Shown: positions 7,849 through 40,743, counted from the first letter of the stretch. The stretch: DNA of 64,000 nt from Candidatus Omnitrophota bacterium (GCA_015232565.1 JADFZK010000004.1:11907-75906); one strand, 5' to 3'. Made by a program: numbers and translations. Notes: a model not told the origin generated them from the sequence alone.

Positions 7849-7854
7849 ACGGAA

Positions 7855-25800: not shown

Positions 25801-28800
25801 CCAGTTCACGCCAATGTTACTCATGTAATTAAGATCCGACCAGTTCACCCCCGCCTGGCTCATGACATCAATATCTGCCCAATTAACACCAGTCTTGGTA
25901 AGCAAGTCAATATCGGTCCAGTTAATCCCTGTATTGCTTAGAGTGCCGATATCGGTCCAATTAACGCCGGTCTCGCTTAACCGCCCGATATCGGTCCAGT
26001 TGATTCCAGTTACACTTAATGTTTCAAAATCAGTCCAATTGATCCCGGTCAAACTAGCTGATCCGATATCTGTCCAATTAATGCCGGTGGTACTAACCAG
26101 GCCGAGATCCTGCCAATTAATACCAGTTTTAGAAATGCTTTCAACATCCGACCAATTGACACCCGTTTTAGTTAAAGTGTCAATATCCTGCCAATTAATT
26201 CCGATGGTGGTGATTGTATTGAGGTCAGACCAATTAACGCCCGTTTTGGTAAGAAGCTCTATGTCAGTCCAGTTAATACCAGTCGATGCTAAATGTTCCA
26301 CATCGGTCCAATTAATACCTGAACGGCTGATAACATCAATGTCGTTCCAGTTGACACCAGTTTTAGCCAGAACATCGATGTCCTGCCAGTTAATACCAAC
26401 GTTACTTAATACTCCGAGGTCCGACCAATTAACACCTGTTTCACTAATAACATCAATATCCAGCCAGTTAATGCCGGTAACGCTTAAAGCACCAATATCC
26501 GTCCAATTAATACCTGTCAGGCTTAAAGCTTCAACATCAGTCCAGTTAATACCCTTATTTGTTAATACATCAATATCCAACCAGTTGATTCCGTTATCAC
26601 TTAAAACCGCCACATCCATCCAGTTCACACCATTAATGGTCATCTGCGCAAAATCCGTCCAATTAACGCCAACCGCAGTCATCACGCTGAAGCTGTCCCA
26701 ATTAACTCCGGCAGTCGTTAAACTGTTTACATCCGTCCAATTAACTGCGGTCAAACTTAAGACCGCCACATCGGTCCAATTAACACCAATAGTAGTCAAG
26801 GTGTTTACATCCTGCCAATTAACGCCTGAAGTGGTCATAACCGACAGGTCATTCCAATTTACTCCAATACTGTTCATCACATTCAGGTCGGCCCAGTTAA
26901 CACCGATATTGCTCATGTAATTCAGATCCGACCAGTTGACTCCTGACTGACTCATTGACTCAATATCCGTCCAATTAACACCAGTCTTAGTAAGCAGGTC
27001 GATATCGGTCCAATTGATCCCGGTATTGCTTAAGGTGCCGATATCGGTCCAATTAACACCGGTTTCACTTAACCGGCCAATGTCGGTCCAGTTTACCCCG
27101 GTTACACTTAGAGCCTCAATATCAGTCCAATTTAAACCAGTCAAACTTAATGACCCGATATCAGTCCAATTTATTCCAGTAGCACTTAAACGGCCAATAT
27201 CTTGCCAATTTATTCCTGTTGTGGAAAGTCTTTCAATATCAGACCAATTAACACCAACCTTAGTTAAAGTGTCAATGTCTTGCCAGTTAATACCAGTTAT
27301 GCTAACGGTTTCAATGTCTGTCCAGTTCACTCCGGTCGTAGATAAAGTTTCAATATCTGTCCAATTTATTCCTGTGTTACTCAATGTGGATAGATCAGTC
27401 CAATTTATTCCAGTGTTAGTAATTGAATCAATATCTGACCAGTTAACACCTGAATCACTTAACAAAGCAATATCATTCCAATTTACGCCATCGGCGGTCA
27501 GTTGCGCAAAATCAGTCCAGTTAACGCCAACCGCAGTCATTACACTAAAGTTATCCCAATTCACTCCTGCTGAAGCCATTAAATCGAGATCAGACCAATT
27601 TACTGTAGTTTCGCTTAAAACCGCCACATCATTCCAGTTAACTCCGGCTAAACTGAGCGAGCTCACATCATGCCAATTGACACCGGCAGTTGTCATAACC
27701 GAAAGATCATTCCAGTTAACACCTAAGCTGTTCATAACATTGAGATCTGACCAATTTACCCCAATATTACTCATATAATTAAGATCGGACCAATTTACCC
27801 CGGAACGACTCATCAAATCAATATCATTCCAGTTAACATTGGTTTTACTTAGAGTATCAATGTCTTGCCAATTGACCCCAGTAGTAGAAAGTGTTTCAAT
27901 ATCAGTCCAATTAATTCCGGTTTTAAATAAAACGTCAATGTCTTGCCAGTTAATACCGGATTTAGCTAAAACATCGACATCCGCCCAATTAACACCAGTT
28001 GCAGATAAAACACCGATATCCGTCCAATTAATTCCTGTGCGGCTAAATGTGTTTATATCTTCCCAATTTAATCCGGTCATGCTAAGCGCGGAAACGTCCA
28101 TCCAATTAATACCTTGCGTGCTTATTTGCGAAATATCAGACCAATTCACATTTGCAGTGGACATGGTAGTAATATCATCCCAATTCGCACCTGCTATTGA
28201 TAACGTTGCAATATCAGTCCAGTTAATACCAGAAACAGACATTGCATCAAAATTTGTCCAATTAATACCTGAAACTGTCATTGTTTCAATATTGGACCAA
28301 TTAATACCACTTTGAGTCAAAGAGCCTATATCCGTCCAATTAACGCCAGTTTCACTCAAAGAACCAATATCAGACCAGTTAATAGCGGTACGCGACAAGG
28401 TCTCGATATCCGTCCAATTGATTCCCATATCCGACATGGTTTGAATATCATCCCAGTTTACACCTTTAGCACTCAGGACTTGAATATCAGTCCAGTTAAT
28501 GCCTACCAGGGACATCAAAGCAACATCAAACCAATTTACACCGGTAGAACTTAATGTTTGAATATCATCCCAATTAATATTTGTTTTGGTCAAACTTTGA
28601 ATGTCATTCCAGTTAACTCCGGCTTGAGTAAGCGTTGAAATATCCGACCAATTTACCCCGTTAACCGACATGGTTCCAATATCTATCCAATTAATACCAG
28701 CAACTGAAATTGTTTCAATATCAGACCAATTAACTCCAGACAAGCTTATTTGTTCAATATCTTGCCAATTAACCCCTTGATTGGACAGCACATCAATGTC

Positions 28801-31800
28801 TAACCAGTTAACTCCTTGTGTAGTTAAAACACCAATATCAATCCAATTGATCCCAGTAGTGGAAATAGTTTCAATATCTAACCAATTAATACCTTTCTTT
28901 GAAATAACTTCAAAATCAGCCCAATTAATACCAGTATTACTAAACACCGTCACATCGGACCAGTTTACACCTTCTTTGGAAAGCATTTCAATATCAGCCC
29001 AATTAACTCCGGATTGACTGAAAGTTCCCAGATCGATCCAATTAATACCGGTTAAACTCATGGCTCCAACATCGATCCAATTAATGCCCACAGTGGTCAT
29101 TTCACTTAAGTTATTCCAATTCAATCCCGCAGTTGAAATAACATTCAAATCGCTCCAATTAACTCCGGTTGAAGCCAGCAAACTAATATCAGTCCAATTA
29201 ACACCTGAAGTGGTTAATACTGAAATATCATTCCAGTTAACCCCAGCGTCAGTTAATATTGAAAGATCGTTCCAATTAACTCCGGCCGTACTCAAGGTTT
29301 CAATATCAACCCAATTAATTGAGCTGTTCCCCAACACACCAAAGTCGCTCCAATTGATCCCCGTCAAACTTAACGAAGCAATATCAGTCCAATTTACTCC
29401 ATTACCGCTAAGCGCACCGATATCAATCCAGTTAATGCCATTATTTGACATCGACTCTATACTCAGCCAATTAATACCAGAAGTAGACATTGCGCCAATG
29501 TCCTGCCAATTCAACGTGGTCTTGGAAAGAACATCAACATCAGACCAATTAATACCGGTAGCTGAAAGTGCCGCAATATCTTGCCAGTTAATAGAGGAGT
29601 TCGACAAAATCGACAGATCACCCCAATTAATCGCAGAATCAGACAATGCCTGAATATCCACCCAGTTGATGGCCTGAGTTGAAAGACTTTCTATGTCGGT
29701 CCAATTAACGCCTGACAAAGTAAGACTTTCAATATTGGTCCAATTAACACCATTATTGGACATTAGTGAAAGATCATTCCAATTAACACCTATTGTACTC
29801 ATTACCGAAATATCAGACCAGTTAACACCATTTTTAGAAAGCTGATCCAGATCCGACCAGTTAATGCCGGTAAGACTCAAATTTTCAATATCCGTCCAAT
29901 TAATCCCATTGGTAGATAAAGTTTGAAGGTCGATCCAGTTAATCCCTGCGTCGGTCAAAACGGCAATATCCTGCCAATTCACACCGGCTTTACTGCTGGA
30001 ATCAAGATCCGTCCAATTAATTCCTGATTGGGTTAATGCCGTTATATCCTGCCAGTTCACACTAAGAGCGGTCATTGAAGCCAAATCTTGCCAATTAACG
30101 CTACTCCGGGAAAGCGTTTCAATATCCAACCAATTAATTCCAACAGAGGTCAATGTGTCCAGATCACTCCAGTTAATACCCTGGGCTGTCAAACTACCAA
30201 GATCAACCCAATTGATGCTATTAAGGCTCATAACAGAAAGATCGTTCCAATTAACCATTGAAATACTTAATGCATTTACATCGGTCCAATTAACACCGGA
30301 CTTAGTCAAAGTCTCAATATCTATCCAATTGATCCCCGCATTTGAAAAAGAATTAATATCGGCCCAATTAACTCCTGATCTGGTCAATGTGTCCAGATCT
30401 TGCCAATTAATGCCCGCTTCGGTAAGAACATTAAGATCCGACCAGTTGACTCCAGTTAAAGACAGGGCCGCCAGATCAGTCCAATTAATTCCCGCCGCAG
30501 TGACAGCGTCAACATCCGTCCAATTTATACCCACTGCCGATAATGTTCCCAGATCCAGCCAATTAATTCCGGTTTGACTTAATACGCCTAAATCCTGCCA
30601 ATTAACTCCCGTCGCAGTGATCGTTTGTAGATCAATCCAGTTAATACCTGCACTCGCTAAAGAAGAAACATCTTGCCAATTAACTCCGGCATCCGATAAA
30701 GTTGCCAAGTCACTCCAATTAACACCGTTCAAAGAAAGTGCGGCAATATCCGTCCAATTAACTCCTGATAATGAAAGCGAATTAAGATCACTCCAATTAA
30801 CGGCGGAATCAGACAGACTTTGAATATCGGTCCAGTTAACTCCGCTAACACTTAGATTGCCAATATCGGTCCAGTTAACACCAGACAAACTAAGAGCGCC
30901 AATGTCAGTCCAGTTAACACCCGTATTGCCAAGTATCCCGATATCAAGCCAATTAATACCGGTTTTTGATAAAGTTTCAACATCACTCCAATTAACTCCT
31001 GCCTCGGTTAAAGACTGAACATCCGTCCAATTAACACCCACAGTACTGATAGTTTCAACATCAACCCAGTTAACACCGGATAACGACAATGTTTCCAGGT
31101 CAACCCAGTTAACACCCATAACAGTCATTGACTGAAGATCAGTCCAATTGACCCCGGTCATGGTCATGGACTGCAGGTCCTGCCAGTTAATCCCGGTAGA
31201 GGTAAATGATTGTACGTCGGCCCAGTTGACACCAGTACGACTTAACGTTTCAATATCAGTCCAATTAACGCCTATCCTGGTCATCGTTTCAATATCCGAC
31301 CAGTTTACTCCCTGTAAAGTCAACGACTGAACATCGATCCAATTGATACCCGCTACAGTAAGGCTTTCAATATCGGTCCAATTAATACCAGACTGGCTAA
31401 CCTCTCCAATATTCTCCCAATTGACACCCACATTGGTCATGGTCGAAAGGTCATTCCAGTTAATTCCCAGGCTGTTCATGATATTTAGATCAGACCAGTT
31501 CACTCCTACATTACTCATGTAGTTGAGATCCGACCAGTTGACTCCGGTCCGGCTCATTTGATCAATATCCTGCCAGTTAATACCGGAAAGAGTCAAATTC
31601 TCAACATCAAGCCAGTTAACACCAGCCAGGGTCATGGCGCCAATATCAACCCAGTTAACACCGGTTTTAGTAACCGCTTCAATATCCAGCCAGTTTACGT
31701 TAGCGGTCGTCAAAGCATTAACATCCGTCCAGTTAACCCCGGCGGCCGTTAAGGCACTAATATCAGTCCAATTTATAGTCGCTAAAGACATTACATTCAA

Positions 31801-34800
31801 ATCACTCCAGTTAACGCTGGAAGAGGTCAAGGTCTGCAGGTCGGTCCAGTTCACTCCGCTATCAGCCAGTGAACCAAGATCGATCCAGTTAACGCCAGAC
31901 TGACTTAATGAACCCACATCAAGCCAATTAACACCGGATAGAGTTAAAGCTTGAACATCATTCCAATTAAGCCCGGCGGCCGAAAGCGCTGACACATCGG
32001 TCCAGTTAATTCCCGCGTTGGTGAAAATGTTTATATCGCTCCAATTAACACCTGCCGTGGTCAACGTAGTAACATTATCCCAATTGACACCCGCCAAAGA
32101 CAAGGTGTTAAGGTCGCTCCAATTGATACCCGACTCACTTAATAGAGAAACATCCGTCCAATTTACACCGGCAACGGTAAATGTTTCAATATCCGTCCAA
32201 TTAATTCCGGAAGAAGTTATGGTTTGCAGATCAGTCCAGTTAATACCGGTCTGACTTAAAGCGCCGATATCTTCCCAGTTCACTCCGGTAGCGCTTAACT
32301 TGCCAATATCAGTCCAATTAATTCCGGTTGCTGAAAGCGCGCCCAGATCAACCCAGTTAATTCCAGCCGCAGAAAGAGTATTAATATCACTCCAGTTGAT
32401 ACCGGTCTGGGAGAACGCCGCAAGATCAGTCCAGTTTACGCCCGCTAAAGTGACCGCATTCAGATCACTCCAGTTTACTCCCGCATAACTTAAAGCCTGA
32501 ATATCGGTCCAATTAACTCCGCTGTCAGACATGGCACCCAGATCAATCCAGTTAACGCCGGATTGACTTAACGATCCGATGTCTTCCCAATTAACCCCGG
32601 TAGCGCTCAAAGCGCCAATATCAGTCCAGTTAATGCCAATGCGAGTTAATGAATCAATATCACTCCAATTAATGCCTTGTGTTGAAATAGCTTGTATGTC
32701 AGTCCAATTAATACCTGAAACACTTAATGAACTAATGTCAGTCCAATTAACGCCCACATCCGACAAAGCACCAATATCAGTCCAATTAACTCCTGCCAGA
32801 CTTAAACTGCCGATATCAGTCCAATTAACACCTGTCACTGTGAGCGATTGAACATCCTGCCAGTTTATCCCTGAAAAAGATAAAGCTTGAATATCAAACC
32901 AATTAACGCCAGTACCACTTAAAGTCTCAACATCCAACCAATTAATCCCGGATTCAGTCAATGATTCGATATCAGTCCAATTAACTCCCTGCATAGTTAA
33001 AGACTGAACATCAGTCCAATTAATCCCGGATAAAGTTAGTGTCTCAACATCGATCCAGTTAATACCAGATTGACTTACTGTGCCAATATTTTCCCAATTA
33101 ACACCCACATTGGTCATGGTCGAAAGATCATTCCAATTAATGCCCAGGCTATTCATAATGTTGAGGTCCGACCAATTTACGCCAACATTACTCATATAAT
33201 TCAAATCAGACCAATTAACCCCGGTTCGGCTCATTTGATCAATGTCGAGCCAATTAATACCAGTCAAAGATAAATTTTCAACATCAGTCCAGTTAACTCC
33301 GGAAAGACTTAAAGCCTCGATATCAACCCAATTAACACCAGCATTACCCAGCACAGCGATATCCTGCCAATTGACTCCAGTTTTGCTTAAGGTATCAATA
33401 TCACTCCAGTTAACACCAGCAACGGTTAACATTTGAATGTCAGTCCAGTTTACGCCGGTCTCACTTATAACCCCGACATCAGTCCAATTAACTCCGGTCG
33501 CAGCTAAAGTGCTAATGTCAGTCCAATTAACTCCGGATAAACTTAAACTTCCCAGATCACTCCAGTTAACACCAGCGTTAGTTAACGAGCCGAAATCGAT
33601 CCAATTAACCCCCGCTTTTGATAAAGTATCAACATCCATCCAATTCACACCAGCAACTGACAGAGCCGTAACATTATCCCAATTAACCCCAGCTACACTC
33701 ATAGTTTCCACATCAACCCAGTTCACACCGGATACCGATAATGTTTCCAGGTCAACCCAGTTAACACCCATAACAGTCATCGACTGAAGATCAGTCCAAT
33801 TGACCCCGGTCATGGTCATGGACTGCAGGTCCTGCCAGTTAATCCCGGTAGAGGTAAATGATTGTACGTCGGCCCAGTTGACACCAGTACGACTTAACGT
33901 TTCAATATCAGTCCAATTAACGCCTATCCTGGTCATCGTTTCAATATCCGACCAGTTTACTCCCTGTAAAGTCAACGACTGAACATCGATCCAATTGATA
34001 CCCGCTACAGTAAGGCTTTCAATATCGGTCCAATTAATACCAGACTGGCTAACCTCTCCAATATTCTCCCAATTGACACCCACATTGGTCATGGTCGAAA
34101 GGTCATTCCAGTTAATTCCCAGGCTGTTCATGATATTTAGATCAGACCAGTTCACTCCTACATTACTCATGTAGTTGAGATCCGACCAGTTGACTCCGGT
34201 CCGGCTCATTTGATCAATATCCTGCCAGTTAATACCGGAAAGAGTCAAATTCTCAACATCAAGCCAGTTAACACCAGCCAGGGTCATGGCGCCAATATCA
34301 ACCCAGTTAACACCGGTTTTAGTAACCGCTTCAATATCCAGCCAGTTTACGTTAGCGGTCGTCAAAGCATTAACATCCGTCCAGTTAACCCCGGCGGCCG
34401 TTAAGGCACTAATATCAGTCCAATTTATAGTCGCTAAAGACATTACATTCAAATCACTCCAGTTAACGCTGGAAGAGGTCAAGGTCTGCAGGTCGGTCCA
34501 GTTCACTCCGCTATCAGCCAGTGAACCAAGATCGATCCAGTTAACGCCAGACTGACTTAATGAACCCACATCAAGCCAATTAACACCGGATAGAGTTAAA
34601 GCTTGAACATCATTCCAATTAAGCCCGGCGGCCGAAAGCGCTGACACATCGGTCCAGTTAATTCCCGCGTTGGTGAAAATGTTTATATCGCTCCAATTAA
34701 CACCTGCCGTGGTCAACGTAGTAACATTATCCCAATTGACACCCGCCAAAGACAAGGTGTTAAGGTCGCTCCAATTGATACCCGACTCACTTAATAGAGA

Positions 34801-37800
34801 AACATCCGTCCAATTTACACCGGCAACGGTAAATGTTTCAATATCCGTCCAATTAATTCCGGAAGAAGTTATGGTTTGCAGATCAGTCCAGTTAATACCG
34901 GTCTGACTTAAAGCGCCGATATCTTCCCAGTTCACTCCGGTAGCGCTTAACTTGCCAATATCAGTCCAATTAATTCCGGTTGCTGAAAGCGCGCCCAGAT
35001 CAACCCAGTTAATTCCAGCCGCAGAAAGAGTATTAATATCACTCCAGTTGATACCGGTCTGGGAGAACGCCGCAAGATCAGTCCAGTTTACGCCCGCTAA
35101 AGTGACCGCATTCAGATCACTCCAGTTTACTCCCGCATAACTTAAAGCCTGAATATCGGTCCAATTAACTCCGCTGTCAGACATGGCACCCAGATCAATC
35201 CAGTTAACGCCGGATTGACTTAACGAACCGATGTCTTCCCAATTAACACCGGTCGCGCTCAAGGCGCCAATATCAGTCCAGTTAATACCAGCATCCGTAA
35301 GAGCTGTAAGATCCTGCCAATTCACACCAACATTCGATAACCGCGAGAAATCTTCCCAATTAATTGCCGAATTACTTAAGGTCTGGATATCCGCCCAGTT
35401 TAACCCGGAAACACTGAACGTTGCGACATCGGTCCAATTTACTCCAGCCATTGATAAAGACTGAATATCTACCCAATTAACGCCGATAACAGTCATGTCC
35501 CCGATATCGGTCCAGTTTATCCCGTTCATGGACAAGCGCTCCAGATCGGTCCAATTAACTCCGGTACTACTAAGTAACTCTACATCGTTCCAGTTAATTC
35601 CAGCGTTAGTCAAAGCATTAATATCTGCCCAATTTATCCCTTGAGTTGAAATGCCCAGAATATCATCCCAATTAATGTTAGTAGTAGACAATACCGCTAA
35701 GTCACTCCAATTTACCCCGTTAACCGATAAGGTTTCTATGTCCGTCCAGTTAATATTACTTACGCTCAGAGATTCAATATCTGTCCAATTAACGCCAGTT
35801 TCACTCAATCTGCCAACGTCAGCCCAATTAATACCTTCGGTTGAAAGGCGATTTATATCCACCCAGTTAACGCCGGTTACAGATAAAGCGGCAACGTCGG
35901 TCCAATTTATACCTTGAGCAGACATAGAGCCAAGATCGATCCAGTTCACACCAACAGCCGAAAGAGACGCCAAGTCATTCCAGTTTACTCCCATTGAGGA
36001 TAAAGCCGAGAGGTCCTGCCAATTAACCGACGCCAATGACAATACATTGAGATCCGTCCAATTAATGTTGGATTCAGACAAAGCCGCAATATCGGTCCAG
36101 TTGATATTAGCGGAAGCAAAAGTGTTTATGTCTGTCCAATTGATCCCCGACACTGAAAGTAATTCAATATTAGTCCAATTAACACCGCTATCCGATATGG
36201 TCTGAATGTCGAGCCAATTAACACCCTGATTGGTAAGAGTACCAAGATCAAGCCAGTTAATACCTGTTTCACTAATAACATCCAGGTCATTCCAGTTTAC
36301 ACCAGCCGCAGTCAAAGAAGCAACATCCGTCCAGTTCACACCACTGGCAGACATTACATTTATATCGCTCCAATTAATTCCGGTCTTGGACAAAGTGGTT
36401 ACATCTTCCCAATTGATACCGGCAATAGTAAGTGCCCCAATATCAGTCCAGTTTATAGCTGAAGAACTTAGCGTTTCAATTTCTGTCCAATTGACACCCG
36501 CTACCGATAAATCACCCAGATCTGTCCAGTTAATTCCAGCCGCAGTCATCGTCTGCATATTGGACCAATTTACGCCAGTAGCCGACAAAGATGCTAAATC
36601 AAGCCAATTGATATTGGAATTTGTAAAAACATCAATATCCGACCAGTTTACACCAGTCGCAGTCAAGACGGAAACATCGGTCCAATTAATGCCCGCTTGG
36701 GACATTTGATCAATATCCTGCCAGTTTACTCCGGTAGCAGATAAAGCCGCTATATCAGTCCAATTAATTCCACTAATACTGACATTCTCCACATCCGTCC
36801 AATTTATACCCGACATTGACAAACGATCAATATCCGTCCAATTGACACCAGACAATGAAAGAGCCTGGAGATCGATCCAATTTATTCCCGTTGCCGCGAT
36901 GGTCCCAACTTCATCCCAATTAACTCCAGCCTGCGAAAGCACTACAACATCATTCCAATTGATGCCTTTTAGAGATAAAGCGCCAATATCATCCCAATTA
37001 ACACCCGCCATGGTTAAAGCAGAAATATCAGTCCAATTTACCCCCGAATCCGAAACCAGCCCGACATCGATCCAGTTAATACCGGAAGTCGAAAGTGCAT
37101 TGACATCCGACCAATTTATGCCACTGTCGGCCATGACAGTGATATTTCCCCAGTTAATGCCACTGCGCGACAAAATATCAACATCGGACCAGTTAATGCC
37201 ATTGGTCGACAAAGACACGATATCGTTCCAATTTATCCCCGTTCGGCTTAGCAGGTCGATATCTCCCCAGTTAATGCCCGCAACAGAAATCGCTTCAATA
37301 TCGGTCCAGTTAACACTGGCATCACTCATGGCGCCAATATCCAGCCAATTAATACCGTTAGCCGAAAGAACGCCGATATCGCTCCAGTTAACACCGCTGG
37401 CCGACAAAGTTTCAACATCAGTCCAATTCACTCCGGTCAACGATAGCACTCCAAGGCTTTCCCAATTGATCCCGCTGGCAGTAAGAGTGTTTATATCGGT
37501 CCAGTTTATGCCTTCCGAAGTAACCCGGCCAATATCCGTCCAATTAATACCGGTTGAACTGATCACCCCAATATCGATCCAGTTAACGCCTTCCTGCGAA
37601 AGCGAAACAATATCGGTCCAATTAATACCGGCAACTGATAAAGAACCCAAATCAGTCCAGTTTACATTAGAGTAGCTCAAACTATTGATGTCGCCCCAAT
37701 TGATATTACTAGCCGCCATTAGGGAAATATCGCTCCAATTAACACCCGCTTCTGATAAAGACCCAATATCAAGCCAATTAATACCCTGAAGACTCATGGT

Positions 37801-40743
37801 ATTAACATCACTCCAATTTATGCCGCTTACGGAAAGCGACTCTATCTCAGTCCAGTTAATACCTTCCAGGGTTAGACGGCCCAGATCAGTCCAATTGATA
37901 CCGGATGAAGACAGAGTACCGATATCATTCCAGTTTATGCCCTGGATTGATAAAACATCAATATCCAGCCAATTCACTCCTGCGGTAGTCAGCGCTTGGA
38001 TATCCTGCCAGTTAACACCGGTTTTGGATAAAGAATTAAGGTCGTCCCAATTTATACCCTGCAAAGATAATTGCTCAATATCCGTCCAATTAATACCAGT
38101 TGCCGACAAAGCGCCAATGTCCTGCCAATTTACACCGGTAGAACTGATGACCGAGATGTTATCCCAGTTCACCCCGGCCCCGGCCAAATAAGCTACGTCA
38201 GTCCAATTAATAGTTTCTACCGACAACCGGGATATATCCGACCAGTTAACTCCGGAGGCACTCAACACGCCAATATCGGTCCAGTTAATACCCAGATCAG
38301 TCAACGCTCCAATGTCGGTCCAATTGACGCCAGTAAGGCTCATGCTGGAAAGATCATCCCAATTTACACCGGACGCCCCCAGCAGGCCCACATCCATCCA
38401 GTTAATGCCCGCATCGGACAAAACCTGGATATTGTCCCAGTTAATGCCTTTAGTAGAGAGGGCATTAATATCTGACCAGTTAACCTCAGAGGCCGACATT
38501 TGCGAAATATCATTCCAATTAACACCGCTTAGCGATAAAGTTTCCAAATCTGTCCAATTTATCCCCGATGCGCTTAATGCTCCGATATCGAACCAGTTCA
38601 CTCCATTAGAGGACATGGCCCCAATGTCCAGCCAATTTACGCCCGTCGCGCTTAAGGCGCCGATATCGCTCCAATTAATACCCGTCAAAGACAAGGATTG
38701 CACATCCTGCCAGTTTATATTGGAGAGAGCCATAACTGAAATGTCAGTCCAGTTAACAGCTGACTGAGATAAGGTTTGGATATCGGTCCAGTTGATGCCC
38801 GAATCGCTCAAGGCTTCCAGGTCAGTCCAGTTCACACCCGCAACGCTTAACGCGTTAATGTCTGTCCAGTTAATGCCCGATTGCGCTAACGAGGAAATGT
38901 CCGTCCAATTGATCCCTGAATTGGTCAAGGAGTTCACATTCTCCCAGTTAACCCCAGAGACCGACAAAGTATCCAGATCCGACCAGTTAACACCCGAGGC
39001 ACTCAACACTCCTATATCCGTCCAGTTAACCCCGGCGGCCGTGAACAACTGCATGTCCGACCAATTGATCCCCAGCTCGCTGAACACACTTATATCGTCC
39101 CAGTTTATGCCGGCGATGGTCATGGTCTCGATGTCATACCAGTTCAACCCGCGATCCGACATTACAGTAAGGTCTTCCCAGTTTATGCTGGCGGTGGTCA
39201 GTACTGCCAGATTATCCCAGTTGACCCGGTCGGGCCAGTTAACACCCGCCCCGGTCATGATAGCCAGGTCGACCCAGTTCACTTCGCTGGAAGTAAGCAG
39301 ATCGAGCTCGGTCCAATTAACCCCGGTATCACTCAATGACGCAATGTCAGCCCAATTAATGCCGATCTCGGACAAACTTGAAATATCGTACCAGTTGATC
39401 GCCAGGTTCGACATAACGCCCATGTCCGACCAGTTAATGCCGGTCTCGGTCAAGGAAACCACATCGTCCCAATTGATCCCCACCAGAGTCATGGCGTAAA
39501 GGTCATCCCAATTGATACCGGCATTCGCCATTTTGCTGAAAGTACCGGCCTGCGTGATAACCTCGATGTCGCCCCAATTAATATCCTTGCCCGCTATTCG
39601 GTCAGTAACAGCCCTGATCGCCCCCACCCCGCTTACCAGCACTTCAATGTCCATCCAGTTAACGCCGTCACTGGCCGACAAAATTTCTTTGGCATCTTCC
39701 CAGTTGATCCTGGTGTCAGACAACACGCCGATATCTTCCCAGTTAACCACGGAAAGATCGGCAACATTTGGCTTGACAAGATCCAGAGGAGCATACGTGC
39801 TGTAAGTGCCGGAAGGAATCTCGCCGGGATAAACGCTGGGGTCAGTGATAAGTTGCTTGATGTCAATAACTAAATTGATAAAATATGAATTTTTGTAATT
39901 CGGCGGATTCCAAATTCCGCGCGCAGTACCATCATAACTGTAGATCTTCTGGTCGGCATTAAGCGCGGGCGCAAACCAATCCTTGCCGGCGTCGGGAGTT
40001 AAGGTGAAACTGGACTGTATCGCCGGAGCGGCCGAAGTGGACGCCGCCACCGTAGCCATGTAGATCGTAGCGTCGCAAGTATCCGCAATTTCAATGTTCT
40101 TACGCTGGCCATCGCTTTCCAGCCAGGCGTAGAACAAATAAGCTTTCACATTGTTATCCCACACCGCGGCGAATTTCGGGCCGGTGCCCTGAAACACATC
40201 AAACGGCTGGGAGGTGGCGCCGGTCAAAGTGCCCGCCGTAGCGTTGAGGGTATACATCTCACCGCCGGTCGTGATCTGCAGGTCCGTGAAACGCGCCACA
40301 CCGTTGACCGCAGTAACCTTCACCGTGCCCCGCAGTCCGGCGTTACCCGGGTTGTTAGCGATAGCAATGGTCACCAGGGTAGCGCTGTCACTGGTAACCA
40401 CATTGTTGCTGGCATCGAGAATAGCGACCGCCGGCTGTCTGGAAAAAGGGATTAAAGTTTTTGAGCTGGAGGGAGACGTGATAAAAGCCAGGTGAGTGGC
40501 CTCGCCATGCTTAACGGAGCCCGAACCGGAATTGGCGCTGAACTTGCCGCTATCCTTACCACCGGTATAATTTGGCTCGATGTCCGCGACTGCCGCCCCA
40601 TTGGTTGGTCCACCGGAGAACTGGGCAAAAGCAGAAGCCGCGACGATATTAGATATTATTAAACTAATAATAAATAATATGACGCAGCGGCTGATGGAAG
40701 AAATGGAGTTTTTGATTTTAGCTATTTTCATCCCAGGGATCAA
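7855..40743 (-). CDS. Giant secreted/surface repeat protein (10,962 aa): signal peptide, about 290-aa beta-rich N-terminal domain, about 800 tandem 13-residue N-W repeats, 228-aa helical C-terminal domain
   Basis: Single open frame of 32,889 nt, impossible by chance. N-terminus MKIAKIKNSISSISRCVILFIISLIISNIVAASAFA is signal-peptide-like. Body is xNWxDIxxLSxxG repeated with exact 13-aa/39-nt periodicity. C-terminal tail is coiled-coil-like with GAGAGAGG low-complexity. Confidence 0.9.
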   Translation of the reverse strand: MIPGMKIAKIKNSISSISRCVILFIISLIISNIVAASAFAQFSGGPTNGAAVADIEPNYTGGKDSGKFSANSGSGSVKHGEATHLAFITSPSSSKTLIPFSRQPAVAILDASNNVVTSDSATLVTIAIANNPGNAGLRGTVKVTAVNGVARFTDLQITTGGEMYTLNATAGTLTGATSQPFDVFQGTGPKFAAVWDNNVKAYLFYAWLESDGQRKNIEIADTCDATIYMATVAASTSAAPAIQSSFTLTPDAGKDWFAPALNADQKIYSYDGTARGIWNPPNYKNSYFINLVIDIKQLITDPSVYPGEIPSGTYSTYAPLDLVKPNVADLSVVNWEDIGVLSDTRINWEDAKEILSASDGVNWMDIEVLVSGVGAIRAVTDRIAGKDINWGDIEVITQAGTFSKMANAGINWDDLYAMTLVGINWDDVVSLTETGINWSDMGVMSNLAINWYDISSLSEIGINWADIASLSDTGVNWTELDLLTSSEVNWVDLAIMTGAGVNWPDRVNWDNLAVLTTASINWEDLTVMSDRGLNWYDIETMTIAGINWDDISVFSELGINWSDMQLFTAAGVNWTDIGVLSASGVNWSDLDTLSVSGVNWENVNSLTNSGINWTDISSLAQSGINWTDINALSVAGVNWTDLEALSDSGINWTDIQTLSQSAVNWTDISVMALSNINWQDVQSLSLTGINWSDIGALSATGVNWLDIGAMSSNGVNWFDIGALSASGINWTDLETLSLSGVNWNDISQMSASEVNWSDINALSTKGINWDNIQVLSDAGINWMDVGLLGASGVNWDDLSSMSLTGVNWTDIGALTDLGINWTDIGVLSASGVNWSDISRLSVETINWTDVAYLAGAGVNWDNISVISSTGVNWQDIGALSATGINWTDIEQLSLQGINWDDLNSLSKTGVNWQDIQALTTAGVNWLDIDVLSIQGINWNDIGTLSSSGINWTDLGRLTLEGINWTEIESLSVSGINWSDVNTMSLQGINWLDIGSLSEAGVNWSDISLMAASNINWGDINSLSYSNVNWTDLGSLSVAGINWTDIVSLSQEGVNWIDIGVISSTGINWTDIGRVTSEGINWTDINTLTASGINWESLGVLSLTGVNWTDVETLSASGVNWSDIGVLSANGINWLDIGAMSDASVNWTDIEAISVAGINWGDIDLLSRTGINWNDIVSLSTNGINWSDVDILSRSGINWGNITVMADSGINWSDVNALSTSGINWIDVGLVSDSGVNWTDISALTMAGVNWDDIGALSLKGINWNDVVVLSQAGVNWDEVGTIAATGINWIDLQALSLSGVNWTDIDRLSMSGINWTDVENVSISGINWTDIAALSATGVNWQDIDQMSQAGINWTDVSVLTATGVNWSDIDVFTNSNINWLDLASLSATGVNWSNMQTMTAAGINWTDLGDLSVAGVNWTEIETLSSSAINWTDIGALTIAGINWEDVTTLSKTGINWSDINVMSASGVNWTDVASLTAAGVNWNDLDVISETGINWLDLGTLTNQGVNWLDIQTISDSGVNWTNIELLSVSGINWTDINTFASANINWTDIAALSESNINWTDLNVLSLASVNWQDLSALSSMGVNWNDLASLSAVGVNWIDLGSMSAQGINWTDVAALSVTGVNWVDINRLSTEGINWADVGRLSETGVNWTDIESLSVSNINWTDIETLSVNGVNWSDLAVLSTTNINWDDILGISTQGINWADINALTNAGINWNDVELLSSTGVNWTDLERLSMNGINWTDIGDMTVIGVNWVDIQSLSMAGVNWTDVATFSVSGLNWADIQTLSNSAINWEDFSRLSNVGVNWQDLTALTDAGINWTDIGALSATGVNWEDIGSLSQSGVNWIDLGAMSDSGVNWTDIQALSYAGVNWSDLNAVTLAGVNWTDLAAFSQTGINWSDINTLSAAGINWVDLGALSATGINWTDIGKLSATGVNWEDIGALSQTGINWTDLQTITSSGINWTDIETFTVAGVNWTDVSLLSESGINWSDLNTLSLAGVNWDNVTTLTTAGVNWSDINIFTNAGINWTDVSALSAAGLNWNDVQALTLSGVNWLDVGSLSQSGVNWIDLGSLADSGVNWTDLQTLTSSSVNWSDLNVMSLATINWTDISALTAAGVNWTDVNALTTANVNWLDIEAVTKTGVNWVDIGAMTLAGVNWLDVENLTLSGINWQDIDQMSRTGVNWSDLNYMSNVGVNWSDLNIMNSLGINWNDLSTMTNVGVNWENIGEVSQSGINWTDIESLTVAGINWIDVQSLTLQGVNWSDIETMTRIGVNWTDIETLSRTGVNWADVQSFTSTGINWQDLQSMTMTGVNWTDLQSMTVMGVNWVDLETLSVSGVNWVDVETMSVAGVNWDNVTALSVAGVNWMDVDTLSKAGVNWIDFGSLTNAGVNWSDLGSLSLSGVNWTDISTLAATGVNWTDVGVISETGVNWTDIQMLTVAGVNWSDIDTLSKTGVNWQDIAVLGNAGVNWVDIEALSLSGVNWTDVENLSLTGINWLDIDQMSRTGVNWSDLNYMSNVGVNWSDLNIMNSLGINWNDLSTMTNVGVNWENIGTVSQSGINWIDVETLTLSGINWTDVQSLTMQGVNWTDIESLTESGINWLDVETLSGTGVNWFDIQALSFSGINWQDVQSLTVTGVNWTDIGSLSLAGVNWTDIGALSDVGVNWTDISSLSVSGINWTDIQAISTQGINWSDIDSLTRIGINWTDIGALSATGVNWEDIGSLSQSGVNWIDLGAMSDSGVNWTDIQALSYAGVNWSDLNAVTLAGVNWTDLAAFSQTGINWSDINTLSAAGINWVDLGALSATGINWTDIGKLSATGVNWEDIGALSQTGINWTDLQTITSSGINWTDIETFTVAGVNWTDVSLLSESGINWSDLNTLSLAGVNWDNVTTLTTAGVNWSDINIFTNAGINWTDVSALSAAGLNWNDVQALTLSGVNWLDVGSLSQSGVNWIDLGSLADSGVNWTDLQTLTSSSVNWSDLNVMSLATINWTDISALTAAGVNWTDVNALTTANVNWLDIEAVTKTGVNWVDIGAMTLAGVNWLDVENLTLSGINWQDIDQMSRTGVNWSDLNYMSNVGVNWSDLNIMNSLGINWNDLSTMTNVGVNWENIGEVSQSGINWTDIESLTVAGINWIDVQSLTLQGVNWSDIETMTRIGVNWTDIETLSRTGVNWADVQSFTSTGINWQDLQSMTMTGVNWTDLQSMTVMGVNWVDLETLSLSGVNWVDVETISTVGVNWTDVQSLTEAGVNWSDVETLSKTGINWLDIGILGNTGVNWTDIGALSLSGVNWTDIGNLSVSGVNWTDIQSLSDSAVNWSDLNSLSLSGVNWTDIAALSLNGVNWSDLATLSDAGVNWQDVSSLASAGINWIDLQTITATGVNWQDLGVLSQTGINWLDLGTLSAVGINWTDVDAVTAAGINWTDLAALSLTGVNWSDLNVLTEAGINWQDLDTLTRSGVNWADINSFSNAGINWIDIETLTKSGVNWTDVNALSISMVNWNDLSVMSLNSINWVDLGSLTAQGINWSDLDTLTSVGINWLDIETLSRSSVNWQDLASMTALSVNWQDITALTQSGINWTDLDSSSKAGVNWQDIAVLTDAGINWIDLQTLSTNGINWTDIENLSLTGINWSDLDQLSKNGVNWSDISVMSTIGVNWNDLSLMSNNGVNWTNIESLTLSGVNWTDIESLSTQAINWVDIQALSDSAINWGDLSILSNSSINWQDIAALSATGINWSDVDVLSKTTLNWQDIGAMSTSGINWLSIESMSNNGINWIDIGALSGNGVNWTDIASLSLTGINWSDFGVLGNSSINWVDIETLSTAGVNWNDLSILTDAGVNWNDISVLTTSGVNWTDISLLASTGVNWSDLNVISTAGLNWNNLSEMTTVGINWIDVGAMSLTGINWIDLGTFSQSGVNWADIEMLSKEGVNWSDVTVFSNTGINWADFEVISKKGINWLDIETISTTGINWIDIGVLTTQGVNWLDIDVLSNQGVNWQDIEQISLSGVNWSDIETISVAGINWIDIGTMSVNGVNWSDISTLTQAGVNWNDIQSLTKTNINWDDIQTLSSTGVNWFDVALMSLVGINWTDIQVLSAKGVNWDDIQTMSDMGINWTDIETLSRTAINWSDIGSLSETGVNWTDIGSLTQSGINWSNIETMTVSGINWTNFDAMSVSGINWTDIATLSIAGANWDDITTMSTANVNWSDISQISTQGINWMDVSALSMTGLNWEDINTFSRTGINWTDIGVLSATGVNWADVDVLAKSGINWQDIDVLFKTGINWTDIETLSTTGVNWQDIDTLSKTNVNWNDIDLMSRSGVNWSDLNYMSNIGVNWSDLNVMNSLGVNWNDLSVMTTAGVNWHDVSSLSLAGVNWNDVAVLSETTVNWSDLDLMASAGVNWDNFSVMTAVGVNWTDFAQLTADGVNWNDIALLSDSGVNWSDIDSITNTGINWTDLSTLSNTGINWTDIETLSTTGVNWTDIETVSITGINWQDIDTLTKVGVNWSDIERLSTTGINWQDIGRLSATGINWTDIGSLSLTGLNWTDIEALSVTGVNWTDIGRLSETGVNWTDIGTLSNTGINWTDIDLLTKTGVNWTDIESMSQSGVNWSDLNYMSNIGVNWADLNVMNSIGVNWNDLSVMTTSGVNWQDVNTLTTIGVNWTDVAVLSLTAVNWTDVNSLTTAGVNWDSFSVMTAVGVNWTDFAQMTINGVNWMDVAVLSDNGINWLDIDVLTNKGINWTDVEALSLTGINWTDIGALSVTGINWLDIDVISETGVNWSDLGVLSNVGINWQDIDVLAKTGVNWNDIDVISRSGINWTDVEHLASTGINWTDIELLTKTGVNWSDLNTITTIGINWQDIDTLTKTGVNWSDVESISKTGINWQDLGLVSTTGINWTDIGSASLTGINWTDFETLSVTGINWTDIGRLSETGVNWTDIGTLSNTGINWTDIDLLTKTGVNWADIDVMSQAGVNWSDLNYMSNIGVNWSDLNVMNSLGVNWNDLSVMTNAGVNWQDITTLSNIGVNWTDVETITDSNINWTDITALTAAGLNWNDLQTLTISGINWDDITSMTEAGVNWSELQNFTNSGVNWSNLDSMTNAGVNWESFGSMTSANVNWTDVGELTLAGVNWLDVSVISSLGVNWTDIDVISKTGINWQDIDVLAKTGVNWNDIDVISRSGINWTDVEQLSITGINWTDIDLLTKTGVNWSDLNLITTTGINWQDIDTLTKTGVNWSDVESISKTGINWQDLGLVSTTGINWTDIGSASLTGINWTDFETLSVTGINWTDIGRLSETGVNWTDIGTLSNTGINWTDIDLLTKTGVNWADIDVMSQAGVNWSDLNYMSNIGVNWSDLNIMNSIGVNWNDLSVMTTSGVNWQDVNTLTTIGVNWTDVAALSLTAVNWSDVNSLTTAGVNWDSFSVMTAVGVNWTDFAQMTINGVNWMDVAVLSDNGINWLDIDVLTNKGINWTDVEALSMTGINWTDIGSLSVTGINWLDIGSISATGVNWSDIGVLSNTGINWQDIDVLAKTGVNWNDIEVISRSGINWTDVEQISATGINWTDIDLLTKTGVNWSDLNVVTTNGINWQDIDTLTKTGVNWSDVEIISKTGINWQDLGQISTTGINWTDIGSASLTGINWTDLETLSVTGINWTDIGRLSETGVNWTDIGTLSNTGINWTDIDLLAKTGVNWTDIESMSQSGVNWSDLNYMSNIGVNWSDLNIMNSIGVNWNDLSVMTTSGVNWQDVNTLTTIGVNWTDVAALSLTAVNWSDVNSLTTAGVNWDSFSVMTAVGVNWTDFAQMTINGVNWMDVAVLSDNGINWLDIDVLTNKGINWTDVEALSMTGINWTDIGFLSVTGINWLDIGSISATGVNWSDIGVLSNTGINWQDIDVLAKTGVNWNDIDVISRSGINWTDVEQLAITGINWTDIDLLTKTGVNWSDLNTITTTGINWQDIDTLTKTGVNWSDVEIISKTGINWQDLGQISTTGINWADIGSASLTGINWTDFESLSVTGINWTDIGRLSETGINWTDLGTVSNTSINWSDIELITKTGINWTDINTLTTSGVNWTDIETLTMTGINWTDIETLSKTGVNWSDIDVFSRSSLNWADVEVLTRTGINWSDIGVLGSTGINWQDIDTITKTGINWTDIGALTNTGINWTDIDQLTKTGVNWTDIDAMSQAGVNWSDLNYMSNIGVNWSDLNVMNGLGVNWNDLSVMTNSGVNWQDMGILTDVGVNWTDIATLSASAVNWSDLDVLSTSTINWDNFSLMTTSGVNWTDFAQMTVDGVNWTDIGSLTASGINWSDINDLTNKGINWTDIGAMSLTGVNWTDIEAVSLTGINWTDIGRLSETGVNWTDIGVLSITGINWQDIDTLAKTGINWADIDVISRSEINWTDVGQVTNTGINWTDIELLTRTGINWTDINTLTTSGVNWTDIETLTMTGINWTDIETLSKTGVNWSDIDVFSRSSLNWADVEVLTRTGINWSDIGVLGSTGINWQDIDTITKTGINWTDIESLTHSGVNWIDIETLSSSAVNWADLELLSTSTLNWDNFSLMTTSGVNWTDFAQMSVDGVNWTDIGTLTESGINWSDVNDLTNKGINWTDIGAMSLTGVNWSDISEVTLTGINWTDIGRLSETGINWTDVGVLSTTGINWQDIDILAKSGMNWADIELLTKSSINWTDVAGLTDSGINWTDIQSLTNVGINWADFEILSVTGVNWDDLNSLSDSAINWTDVASLTMTGVNWSDIGSLSLTNINWADIGVLSTTGMNWSDIDVLARSAINWSDIETLSRSGINWSDVEQISTTGVNWTDIDLLTKSGVNWTDINVLTSAGVNWTDISALSLTGLNWTDIQSLSTTAINWQDIETLSVTGINWTDIQSLSATGINWSDIGVLTTLGVNWADIDLMSESSVNWADMSVLTNSAINWTDLDTLTTSGINWSDISQMSSVGVNWIDLETLSVTGVNWTDISTLSSSAINWTDLNTLSMSGINWTDIESLTSSTINWTDISSLTQSGLNWTDLETLAQSGINWTDIQTLSATGINWADVDTLSKTGINWQDIQTLAATGVNWADIDVMAKTGINWTDILTVTTTGINWQDIEQLTTTGINWTDVGAISQTGINWTDIGSLSLTGINWVDIGTISETGVNWSDIAIMSDRGINWTDIALLSESTVNWSDLNVLTTAEVNWASFSAMTNASVNWTDFAQMTLDGVNWTDLASLSDTGVNWQDFNQLTMSSVNWTDVGALSTTGINWTDMNTLFAEGINWSDVGVMSNVGLNWQDIARLSDSGINWTDVERLSVEGINWTDIGAISAQGINWSDIESLSVVGINWLDIEKISTTGINWTDLESLGKTGVNWTDLETMSKIGVNWTDINSLSVAGINWVDIETVSLTGINWSDIGSMSTIGLNWQDIAELSKTGINWSDINTLSTQGVNWTDIERISLSGINWTDINTLTTQGINWTDVERLSVQGINWLDIDALSRQGINWTDIEQLTVAGLNWEDIRTISLTGINWTDIGNMSLTGVNWSDIGTLSSSGINWLDIQTLTDQGINWADIETISRQGINWTDIESLSVTGLNWTDIQQLTSSGVNWTDWSVFSTLGVNWTDLATLSHSVINWADVQTMSAVAVNWDDLTVLTTRGVNWDDVGVISGTGVNWSDIQTLSDQGINWQDIETLSRQGVNWTDVETLTTTGLNWTDIGLLSVTGVNWEDLNTLSRTGLNWSDIDVLAKQGINWQDLETLSRSSINWSDVQTISNQGINWIDIQALSTNGINWIDLALLSDSGVNWTDLNTLTSSAVNWADFEVLTHQGVNWQDIETLTNIGINWTDIQSLTMDGINWSDIGAMSLTGINWLDIETISRQGINWSDIETVSKQGVNWLDIEKLSTTGINWQDLQQLSVTGINWTDIQSLSSTGLNWSDLNVMSIEGINWTDIEQLSLTGMNWSDLDVISRQGINWTDVEQISRQGINWSDIETISTSGINWTDLNTLSLSGVNWTDIEQISRTGINWTDIETLTKQGVNWTDIETLSTQNINWADIQLLSDSGVNWHDLSIMSLSTINWQDFAQVSSTGVNWADMAVMSNIAINWQDINTMTTTGVNWADIDTISKQGINWQDIERLSTNGINWEDIQRLTVTGLNWDDIKALTVTGINWTDVQTISETGVNWTDIAQLSTTGINWTELQTVSLTGVNWTDIGALGLSGINWTDLSSMSTSTINWLDWASLTNEGINWTDLETISQQAINWTDLQTASNIGLNWADIQTLTTSGINWQDIDVLAKSGVNWTDIETISQTGINWTDIQTIATTGINWSDLDVISKQNINWQDIETLSKQGINWIDVQTLTNVGVNWTDIEQLTKDGVNWEDISLMSATGVNWSDLNYMSSIGVNWSDLNVMNSLGINWTDLSVMTNVGTNWADLSVITNNAINWTDFESMTVTGINWSDIASMHASGINWTDLSTLSSTGINWTDLETMTVAGLNWTDLNTLADSAINWADISILSRSTVNWADIETLSNEGLNWADIETISAQGINWSDIETLSLAGVNWTDIQTLTETGVNWTDINILSNKGINWTDIETASLAGVNWTDIDSLSQTGINWTDIEVISKQSINWTDYETLSKQGLNWTDVELLSKQGVNWTDIESLTKQSVNWSDLEVITKQGINWQDIERLTYTGVNWEDIQQLSVSGLNWTDIGSLSVTGVNWTDIEQLSKTGVNWTDLNSFTTAGINWTDLDLFSRSAINWTDISALSLNGLNWNDIELISKTGINWTDIQTISESGVNWADIDVLSETGINWTDIQTISESGINWSDLNILSGAAINWTDMSAMSNQAINWIDLSAMTTQSINWTDMQTLTVQGINWTDIEAISRTGVNWADIQTLSLTGINWTDLDTISKSGINWTDILTLSTSSINWTDIEALSDNGVNWTDIETLSQTGINWIDLNSLTVSGLNWTDIEKLTLSGINWTDIQTLSSTGVNWADLEIMSNVGTNWQDISTISNSGINWIDVEALGKTGINWTDVQTLTQSGINWTDVNTATLSGINWQDIKELSVTGINWQDIGSLTNQGINWTDVEQISKTGINWTDIESLSTEGVNWTDIETITKTGINWTDLERMTLTGVNWTDIQTLTETGINWSDIDVLSNKGINWTDVQTLSSSGVNWADISVMSDIGVNWTDIAAMTDTAINWTDMNTLSSSGVNWTDIQSLSNTGINWTDIDQLSLSGVNWTDIQTITQSGVNWTDLESFSKSAINWQDWAVLTTTAINWQDMNTLTMSGINWTDLDQMSISGVNWTDISTLGNSGINWSDLDIMSNRGINWTDIETLSTSTINWTDLARISTETINWTDLSLMSNSAINWTDINVLSNKGINWLDIEQISTTGINWTDLQTLSASGINWTDISSMSEIGVNWTDIQTLSQTGVNWSDLNYLSTIGINWTDIAQLSSSSVNWTDIETISKQGINWTDLETISSSGINWYDLAAESLSGINWTDIDSMSDSAINWTDLAVFFNTGVNWTDIQSLTLQGVNWLDVESLSKTGVNWSDLSVMNDAGINWADLAQLTGSAINWTDVNTLSDSGVNWTDLASLTGSAINWTDLNILSTSRINWTDIESLSDSGINWTDVEVLHNAGVNWSDFERMTDLGVNWADVAVLSASGLNWSDMQRMTTDSINWEDLAVMTTRAINWSDLGVSTNSSINWLDIEKMTDQGVNWTDIETLSASGINWTDIERLSLSQLNWQDLAVLGNSQLNWTDISTLGNSGINWTDISSLSASGINWTDLDIMSDSGVNWSDWQSMTNMGINWNDIASMSAQGVNWTGLDVLASSAVNWDDMAVLTTRAINWQDLNTMTTTGVNWESLGIMTTAGVNWDDFVVMTELGVNWDSLDVMTKTEINWQDMSVMSNNAVNWMDLSTMSRSGMNWTDLSQMAIAGINWTDLDSMSMSGVNWSDLDVLSNSGVNWTDFSSMSISSVNWTDINSLSTSGINWQDIDQLSKTSINWTDLDILSDSGVNWTDLARMSDTAINWTDLAMMGTSTINWTDISSLSLSTVNWSDISVMAQTGVNWDDLAVLAQTGVNWSDLDIMTNAGVNWMDLEKLSVNAVNWDDLTVLTSSTVNWLNFSELTGSGINWTDIGSMSLTAVNWTDIDQLTRSGVNWSSIDFMTNAGVNWTDIGALSDSSINWTDLQTLTDTGVNWTDLQTMTISNVNWEDLSLLTATGVNWSDMESLSLTGINWTDMNSLTNSGVNWESIGAMTAAGVNWTDMAALTTNGVNWTDLGIFSQSNVNWTDIETMTLAAVNWADMAQLSETGVNWADMMSMSNNGINWTDFGTLSNSSINWQDINTLSFSEINWTDIASMSTAGANWDSLGSMSNAGINWTDMQVLTDNAINWTDFSALTQSSINWESFSGMTNSGINWTDFEVFTESGVNWDDLQTLSQSTINWQDMSELTNNGVNWTDLMMMSDSGINWTDMSTMSLTDINWAAIQNMSAQGVNWASLGFLSEAQVNWEGLSDLSSVNINWDSLSSMSGTGVNWSGIAEMSTTNINWEDMMLMSDSGLNWMDISQMTNDGINWESIAVMSDVGINWNDIVQISESHINWEDIFTMSTTGLNWLDIGDLSLAGINWTEIDNLSRKGLNWDGIAQMTDASVNWDSLAYMTGAGINWEDMNSFLETGINWDDWMTMTNSSVNWNDMAKMTSGAINWEDMGIVGAADIDWADMGTMTRAGINWGEMATFSKANVNWDDITNMSTSTINWTALSTFSNDAPTLITNMQHVFDVVGSVDDAAGTDTLLGKINNITDAMGTKSFKSILQLLGTDSDKAESKTIFGDIKNIQTLLGVAQADTDITVFKQLARMQASAGAALASAMGINDDLGVNGQSPTIYEKLEEFSQYVQEMKQSAEGISGQGAGAGAGGFAQEVVGMLTKILEEQAKLAGLENTGLLVENLTKQQAKDMDRVNAKLEEIDAKIRALQEAMKVDDIVVKTWFESEE
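21200..27800 (-). repeat. Higher-order tandem repeat (unit 1092 nt = 28 x 39 nt; at least 5 units plus 1443- and 858-nt variants) within the giant gene
   Basis: Antisense shadow ORFs ending at 23644, 24736, 25828 and 26920 are spaced exactly 1092 nt and share long identical peptide stretches. Each unit carries the landmark peptide SDLNYMSNIGVNWSDLNVMNSLGVNWNDLSVMT. The segment 21233-21545 is near-identical to 22325-22637. Confidence 0.8.
31090..35225 (-). repeat. Near-identical 1.48-kb intragenic duplication (31090-32573 vs 33742-35225, offset 2652 nt = 68 x 39)
   Basis: Five antisense ORFs recur with identical sequence at +2652 (e.g. 31148..31330 = 33800..33982; 32300..32488 = 34952..35140). 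Direct reading shows one mismatch over the compared stretches. The corresponding 494-aa protein segment (GVNWEDIGSLSQSG...GVNWVDLETLS) occurs twice. Confidence 0.8.

Follow-up and report, generated by a model that had tools for sequence, protein, structure and literature searches.

How do two segments of about 1.5 kb come to be almost perfectly identical inside a gene whose short repeat units share, on average, little more than half of their nucleotides? This question is raised by a stretch of 64,000 nucleotides from a Candidatus Omnitrophota bacterium (GCA_015232565.1 JADFZK010000004.1:11907-75906), which was analysed as a whole and is referred to as the window. It contains a giant open reading frame (ORF) encoding about 800 units of a 13-amino-acid repeat, here called the INW repeat, and the two segments lie within this array. 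Based on the analysis described below, we propose, with a probability of roughly 0.7, that an older in-register intragenic segmental duplication had its interior recently homogenised by gene conversion. The features needed for the argument are the following (aa, amino acid positions in the giant protein):

7855..40743, minus strand: giant ORF of 10,962 codons; the listed start is TTG, the likely one an ATG at 40731
aa ~334-10727, minus strand: INW repeat array, about 798 in-register 13-aa units
33697..35289, minus strand: copy A, nearer the 5' end of the gene; aa 1819-2349, ~41 units; core 33740-35226
31045..32637, minus strand: copy A', 68 units downstream of A in the protein; aa 2703-3233; core 31088-32574
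32638..33696, minus strand: spacer B, ~27 units between the copies, unrelated to the sequence after A'
32990..33340, minus strand: older paralogous segment within spacer B, ~9 units, with 'NWSDLNYMSN' landmark units

When the window was aligned to itself with a shift of 2652 nt, one mismatch was seen between 31090-32573 and 33742-35225 (31129 T / 33781 C), exactly as an earlier inspection of the sequence without database searches (the sequence-only reading) had reported, and its statement that the offset equals 68 repeat units holds as well (2652 = 68 x 39). The longest exact run covers 1445 nt (31130-32574 = 33782-35226) and, with the single mismatch counted, the near-identical core extends over 1487 nt (31088-32574 vs 33740-35226; 99.9%). 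Both copies are in frame, and the 10,962-codon ORF stays open across them. Because the core mismatch is synonymous (Ser, TCA vs TCG at 31129), the exactly repeated peptide is 518 aa long (aa 1819-2336 = 2703-3220) and not 494 aa as given before, while the homologous tract at codon level comprises 1593 nt or ~41 units (aa 1819-2349 vs aa 2703-3233). Six antisense ORFs of at least 50 aa, one more than previously counted, recur at +2652; they are a mechanical by-product of the duplication, not genes.

Throughout the array, mean unit-to-unit DNA identity is 0.554 (four-unit blocks: standard deviation 0.043, 99.9th percentile 0.737), and the best paralogue of any three-unit block reaches 62-75% DNA identity. 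Measured against this background the identity of the pair lies far beyond chance, which is excluded as its source. The background of ~85% assumed in the sequence-only reading fits only a separate 28-unit repeat at ~22.6-27 kb. An all-offset scan for exact direct repeats of at least 60 nt in the whole window returned four, all inside the giant gene, namely this pair and three runs of 329, 296 and 276 nt whose copies lie 1092 nt apart; every offset is divisible by 39 nt, and the pair is the sole exact direct repeat above 329 nt. Detection of the pair relied on offset scans. Tandem Repeats Finder barely detects the array because its units are too diverged at the DNA level, and a general repeat search of 30-36.5 kb gave only the generic in-register family.

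Near-identical direct repeats within a putative surface protein gene may bring to mind programmed variation, that is, the template and variable repeat pair of a diversity-generating retroelement or a cassette-type system of antigenic variation. However, the sole mismatch in 1487 nt is a T/C difference without any adenine-specific pattern, the tract measures 1.5 kb instead of about 0.1 kb, the repeat search of 30-36.5 kb returned no inverted repeats, and Pfam annotation of 29 flanking ORFs (nearly all large flanking ORFs) revealed neither a reverse transcriptase nor a recombinase. The probability of such a system is negligible, and it was rejected.

The arrangement of the copies is informative about their origin. 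Copy A (41 units) is followed by B (27 units) and then A', instead of forming a tandem (A-B)(A-B), as the copies share only ~41 of the 68 units that make up the period. For this reason one unequal crossover, which would give S-S, cannot produce the pair, and a simple tandem duplication by this route was rejected, since spacer B has no copy after A'. The segment at 32990-33340 within the spacer matches part of A, 25 units (975 nt) away, with an identity of 74-92% in individual units.

The distribution of the differences between A and A' separates two ages within one tract. Eleven differences were counted across the 1593 nt, one of them in the core and ten in the two edges of 43 nt and 63 nt, where identity is graded (88% and 92%). 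Placing 10 of 11 differences within the outer 106 nt amounts to significant clustering (Fisher p = 1.4e-11, with the edges taken as 108 nt in the test). Moreover, eight of the ten edge differences are synonymous and two are non-synonymous, compared with a synonymous share of 28.8% among unrelated unit pairs (P = 0.0012). Nei-Gojobori estimates of synonymous (dS) and non-synonymous (dN) divergence are dS 0.42 and dN 0.024 for the edges and dS 0.003 for the core, whereas the sequence immediately flanking the tract has a saturated dS and a dN of 0.32-0.56. Beyond the edges identity drops to background, abruptly at the N-terminal side, and in the 200 nt past the C-terminal edge it is slightly raised (66.5%). 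Raised identity continues outwards past the points where divergence was initially reported to resume, to 31045-32637 and 33697-35289. The synonymous bias of the edge differences indicates that the copies evolved separately under purifying selection, and the extent of edge divergence implies that they did so for a long time.

Could a single very recent event explain the pair without any older paralogy? In that case, ~41 units would have been copied and inserted 27 units downstream by template switching or break-induced replication at microhomology in the conserved G-[IV]-N-W codons, or a one-off conversion would have taken place between unrelated units, and the edge differences would represent a patchwork left by repair. 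The essentially identical core agrees with this scenario, and a tract of aa 1819-2351 would comprise exactly 41 units, which makes an in-register insertion arithmetically possible. It would also fit that colinearity with a homologous gene (locus L012, described below) is lost at about the unit where A' begins, and that an isolated 276-nt exact patch with unrelated flanks exists elsewhere in the gene. However, mutations acquired after a single event should be spread evenly and not be concentrated at the edges, leftovers of heteroduplex repair would be expected to be ~29% synonymous where 80% was seen, and the edge dS implies long separate evolution. We regard a single event as unlikely, and a single brand-new duplication was rejected as a full account because it leaves the diverged edges unexplained.

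The simplest account of both ages is an older duplication with later conversion. As a first step, an older intragenic segmental duplication would have yielded in-register blocks of ~41 units, and the edges would have kept that age (dS about 0.4). Non-reciprocal homologous recombination between the copies would then have very recently homogenised the central ~1.49 kb, leaving one synonymous difference. Since conversion tracts need flanking homology, the conversion would have stopped short of the tract ends. We infer this recombination mechanism and this order of events from the pattern of identity, register and selection described above. The blocks also resemble those of higher-order repeats under concerted evolution, with 99.9% identity over 1487 nt compared with 55% between units, and the gene is a mosaic in which young patches (the core and the runs of 296 and 329 nt) lie on older paralogous layers.

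Several points weigh against this interpretation. Copy number and exactness of the consensus are taken from the assembly, and the edge statistics are based on only 10 sites. The searched collections contain no close relative, the best N-terminal identity being 68%, and colinearity with the L012 gene ends at ~unit 180, so that A' may either have been inserted, making the protein 41 units longer, or have been written over units already present. Finally, the ~55% identity between units is too low to start homologous recombination, which is why the model needs an older paralogy that is visible only at the edges.

A second zone in the same gene shows a comparable layering:

21251..27100, minus strand: second block-repeat zone, a 28-unit (1092-nt) higher-order repeat in about 4-5 copies

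At about 22.6-27 kb, this repeat forms an older layer (~85% identical, dS 0.57-1.3, dN 0.04-0.1), in which the exact patches of 329 and 296 nt are embedded. The third patch, with its 276-nt exact run (21251-21526 = 22343-22618), is isolated, as its flanks are unrelated and show background-level identity.

Homologues were collected from several sources. A word-indexed protein database contained Omnitrophota proteins of at most 838 aa, mostly labelled 'partial' and at most 54% identical, and a search of 1.84 billion cluster representatives with a profile of the repeat gave 556 matches (E <= 1e-3); among the best 150 matches listed, the longest homologue has 4701 aa. A repeat segment used as query retrieved 50 loci in GTDB species representatives, almost all of them metagenome-assembled genomes (MAGs) of Omnitrophota, and most of these matches lie at or near contig ends. 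Peptide patterns of the N-terminal domain found no relatives in GTDB genomes or Joint Genome Institute (JGI) metagenomes.

Exact in-register block repeats, with offsets that are all multiples of 39 nt, were found in the homologues of five other Omnitrophota assemblies:

L012 and L019: exact runs of 915 and 997 nt, 25 units
L007 and L032: exact runs of 521 and 587 nt, 12 units
L045: exact run of 268 nt, 6 units
OY759724.1 (L030, L033, L039, L044, L048): exact runs of up to 4121 nt; tandem 3432-nt (88-unit) blocks, 100% identical

OY759724.1 is a single-record chromosome of 3.36 Mb, in which the INW gene spans the record start and contains several domains of 88-unit blocks. This gene is open in every fetched stretch, and its length would be at least 66 kb provided that these stretches join up across the record start (record positions 1-5197 and 16235-26530 lie outside them).

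A further homologue is the gene at L012:8828-19216 ('Ca. Elulimicrobium sp.', DYOU01000006.1), already listed above for its 25-unit repeat. Its N-terminal domain is 68% identical to that of the window gene, and the two arrays are colinear unit for unit over ~180 units; such conservation of unit number and order is unexpected for a 39-nt tandem array. This strict colinearity indicates that the array is not freely unstable. Past unit ~180, none of about 680 shifts restores colinearity (best z = 2.5). A patch at a 74-unit offset in L012 was considered as a shared A/A' paralogy and rejected, because it is only a 4-unit patch specific to L012. At the orthologous position, both genes carry the 25-unit paralogy described above for the segment within spacer B, and because it is 100% identical in L012 (915 nt exact) and about 75-80% identical in the window, an ancestral paralogy has been homogenised in place in one lineage. 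In comparison with L015, the window gene is shifted by 0, then -1, then -3 units over about 110 units, reflecting small unit indels, and total gene lengths vary widely between species.

A three-unit landmark motif, GVNWSDLNYMSN[IV]GVNWSDLN[IV]MNS[LI]G[VI]NWNDLS.MT, occurs ten times in the window gene (34176, 33201, 31524, 27780, 26922, 25830, 24738, 23646, 22203 and 15651), with one partial occurrence at 12531; positions are top (+) strand coordinates of the first motif codon, the gene being on the minus strand. Both zones of recent homogenisation contain the motif. No other units are as well conserved between the window gene and L012, and the motif is also present in L004, L008, L020 and L034.

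In L003:6026-9148, the JGI contig encoding the homologue P0002, the INW gene ends in a non-repeat, out-of-pattern tail after near-identical units, and an antisense gene overlaps this tail and reaches the contig end. This end is probably the result of short-read fold-back or chimeric assembly in the repeats.

Taken together, concerted evolution of multi-unit blocks would appear to be a standing property of the INW gene family. The pair in the window is typical of this family and not exceptional, representing a fresh example of a well-known process.

These relatives also bear on the question of whether the pair is an artefact of assembly or polishing, in which a false second copy was created, paralogues of ~90% identity were made identical by multi-mapped reads, or an (A-B) array was collapsed. 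The gene is extremely repetitive, its homologue breaks at contig ends in nearly every public short-read MAG, and the L003 contig looks chimeric at the repeat end, all of which speaks for this concern. However, a false copy should have sharp edges, while those observed are graded, independently diverged and synonymous-biased; outside the tract, the ~55% background leaves an assembler little to confuse, and the 33-kb ORF is uninterrupted and in register. Moreover, an exact repeat of 1.45 kb normally defeats short-read graphs, which would imply the use of long reads able to span the 4.2-kb structure, and homogenisation of the consensus is improbable where long reads can anchor each copy. The gene also has three additional exact in-register patches, and analogous exact block repeats occur in five other assemblies, including a complete chromosome; both observations argue against an artefact, which we consider improbable. 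Of the three origins offered by the sequence-only reading (recent duplication, gene conversion or artefact), conversion is thus favoured, placed on top of an older duplication, and both a brand-new duplication and an artefact are disfavoured.

What kind of protein is being reshaped in this way? The N-terminus of the giant protein resembles a signal peptide (MKIAKIKN...AASAFA|QF) and is followed by two beta-sandwich domains, which were modelled confidently (predicted local distance difference test, pLDDT, about 80-96) and resemble Ig, FnIII and macroglobulin domains. At the other end, the protein closes with one further domain:

C-terminal end of the giant protein, minus strand: non-repeat C-terminal domain, ~235 aa

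Within the array, the spacing from one NW to the next is 13 residues in 792/797 cases. The unit consensus reads [TS]-G-[IV]-N-W-x-D-[IL]-x-x-[LM]-[ST]-x, and among 781 in-register units N4 and W5 are invariant (781/781), D7 is present in 732 and G2 in 654. Neither the repeat nor the N-terminus or C-terminus matched a sequence family in Pfam, NCBIfam or PDB, Rfam gave no match in the window, and nothing specific on this 13-residue repeat was found in the literature. Sub-threshold or precomputed Pfam matches to PF25533 (Lysostaphin_N) and PF00389 on the homologues P0001 and P0002 and on the window repeat were rejected as artefacts of periodicity or composition. The lysostaphin propeptide is likewise a 13-residue tandem repeat, and automatic annotation could mislabel INW genes.

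An AlphaFold2 (AF2) model of 20 units, computed from an alignment of 38 in-register segments of the giant protein, is all-beta, each unit contributing a strand of 10 residues and a turn of 3 (pLDDT 67, predicted template modelling score 0.67, one of five models). Foldseek found no significant neighbour of this repeat model (best E 0.2, template modelling score at most 0.34), and the run for the N-terminal domains predicted the first repeat units as helices, at low confidence. Repeat sequences are a known case of solenoid over-prediction by AF2 (PMC11795689).

The G+C content of the giant gene (0.39-0.45; window 8000-40000) differs from that of the flanking genes (0.50-0.55), and GC skew is strongly negative throughout the gene. 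Both probably reflect the Asn/Ile/Thr/Ser/Asp-rich composition of the repeat and not a foreign origin, which is also disfavoured because synteny is conserved. The neighbouring genes are as follows:

46669-47289, minus strand: GspC-like protein, first of the upstream cassette (40872..47289)
45098-46672, minus strand: secretin, upstream cassette
44234-45097, minus strand: TPR protein, upstream cassette
42545-44143 and 40872-42512, minus strand: two FGE-sulfatase-domain proteins, upstream cassette
6517..7848, minus strand: conserved 443-aa protein with no assigned function, downstream of the giant gene
1107-6520: ATP synthase operon, beyond the 443-aa protein
56166-59432: 1088-aa protein with a weak, far sub-threshold GH149-like N-terminal match
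61849-62343: PilZ-domain protein
62379-63875: AsmA/DUF748-family protein

Using tblastn of the window neighbours, we found strict synteny at about 45 loci of GTDB Omnitrophota genomes (L003-L053). The fixed order is GspC-like protein, secretin, TPR protein, two FGE-sulfatase-domain proteins, giant gene, a protein of ~390-440 aa and the ATP synthase operon. Short-read MAGs split the giant gene, placing its 5' and 3' ends on separate contigs, and block repeats like those described here explain why virtually no short-read Omnitrophota MAG has this conserved locus intact. The FGE-sulfatase fold is also found in GldK/PorK-type secretion-ring lipoproteins, and the two proteins of the cassette may be structural rather than enzymatic. 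Considering the signal peptide, the two Ig-like domains and the neighbouring secretin, the label 'surface protein' used in the sequence-only reading is plausible, and we retain it as putative.

With regard to the consequences, perfect direct repeats of 1445 nt that lie 2652 nt apart would be a ready substrate for RecA-type unequal exchange, and each RecA-dependent exchange would change the protein by exactly 68 units (884 aa), gained or lost in frame. That the locus may be prone to such gain or loss, as previously suggested, is a reasonable expectation, indirectly supported because relatives show tandem block arrays and unit indels. The pair shows that the array, although ancient at the level of its units (55% DNA identity, colinearity with another species over ~180 units), is still being remodelled in frame through changes to large blocks.

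The host gene family is more noteworthy than the duplication, which is itself an ordinary signature of concerted evolution. An unannotated family of giant repeat proteins sits in the secretin cassette of a phylum thought to attach to or prey on other cells, and length variation in such a protein could affect reach, antigenic variation or phage-receptor variation. We tentatively suggest, at somewhat less than even odds, that many Omnitrophota species share an uncharacterised family of secreted INW fibres with hundreds to thousands of units, encoded in a fixed cassette and tuned in length in multi-unit blocks by ongoing intragenic recombination. If this is true, natural populations would carry variants whose lengths differ by 68 units here and by 25, 28 or 88 units in relatives. 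Assuming one beta rung of ~0.48 nm per unit, a geometry that is inferred only, the fibre would be about 0.2-0.4 um long, similar in size to the cell.

Gene conversion between dispersed bacterial paralogues is well known from tufA/tufB and the rRNA operons. The pair described here resembles these cases in its homogenised interior with more diverged tract ends, consistent with a non-reciprocal transfer that leaves length unchanged. Unlike them, it is intragenic, formed by blocks of one ORF 2.65 kb apart, and donor and recipient are indistinguishable.

Identical repeats in Gram-positive surface proteins and alpha-satellite higher-order repeats are examples of concerted evolution in tandem arrays. 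A further case is the ice-binding adhesin of Marinomonas primoryensis with ~120 identical 104-residue RII repeats (PMC4083281). As in tandem-repeat genes under concerted evolution, the blocks of the INW gene are far more alike than its units, offsets are exact unit multiples, the frame is kept, and identity is patchy and mosaic, as expected from unequal exchange and gene conversion. In contrast to them, its 39-nt units are old and diverged (~55% DNA identity), only a few blocks are young, and the young pair is non-tandem (A-B-A') and known from one assembly.

Regarding its size and setting, the INW protein invites comparison with the published giants of Omnitrophota, namely the Archaeovorins, which feature SecA DEAD, HEAT and many transmembrane segments, and the Dockerin-type proteins, in which Dockerin occurs with TSP3 repeats (bioRxiv 10.1101/2023.11.21.568195). 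It shares with them the phylum, a very long protein, adjoining type II secretion-like genes (secretin, GspC-like) and fragmentation of the gene at contig ends in short-read MAGs. It differs in that it has no transmembrane-rich body, in that Pfam searches of its N-terminal, C-terminal and repeat segments gave no SecA, HEAT, Dockerin or TSP3 domain, and in that its 10,962 aa contain a single 13-aa repeat without a Pfam match.

At the level of the repeat unit, the closest analogues are short-repeat beta-solenoids such as ice nucleation proteins, whose coils have 16 residues (PMC10418271). As in these, and in pentapeptide-repeat and insect antifreeze proteins, the tandem units of the giant protein are very short and feature invariant Asn, Gly and aromatic positions, and the AF2 model is all-beta (pLDDT 67, 1/5 models), yet it has no significant structural match. 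Finally, a catalogue of long proteins describes strict tandems at the nucleotide level as rare and recent expansion as atypical (bioRxiv 10.64898/2026.06.07.730766); in contrast to this trend, the INW family shows recent homogenisation of blocks.

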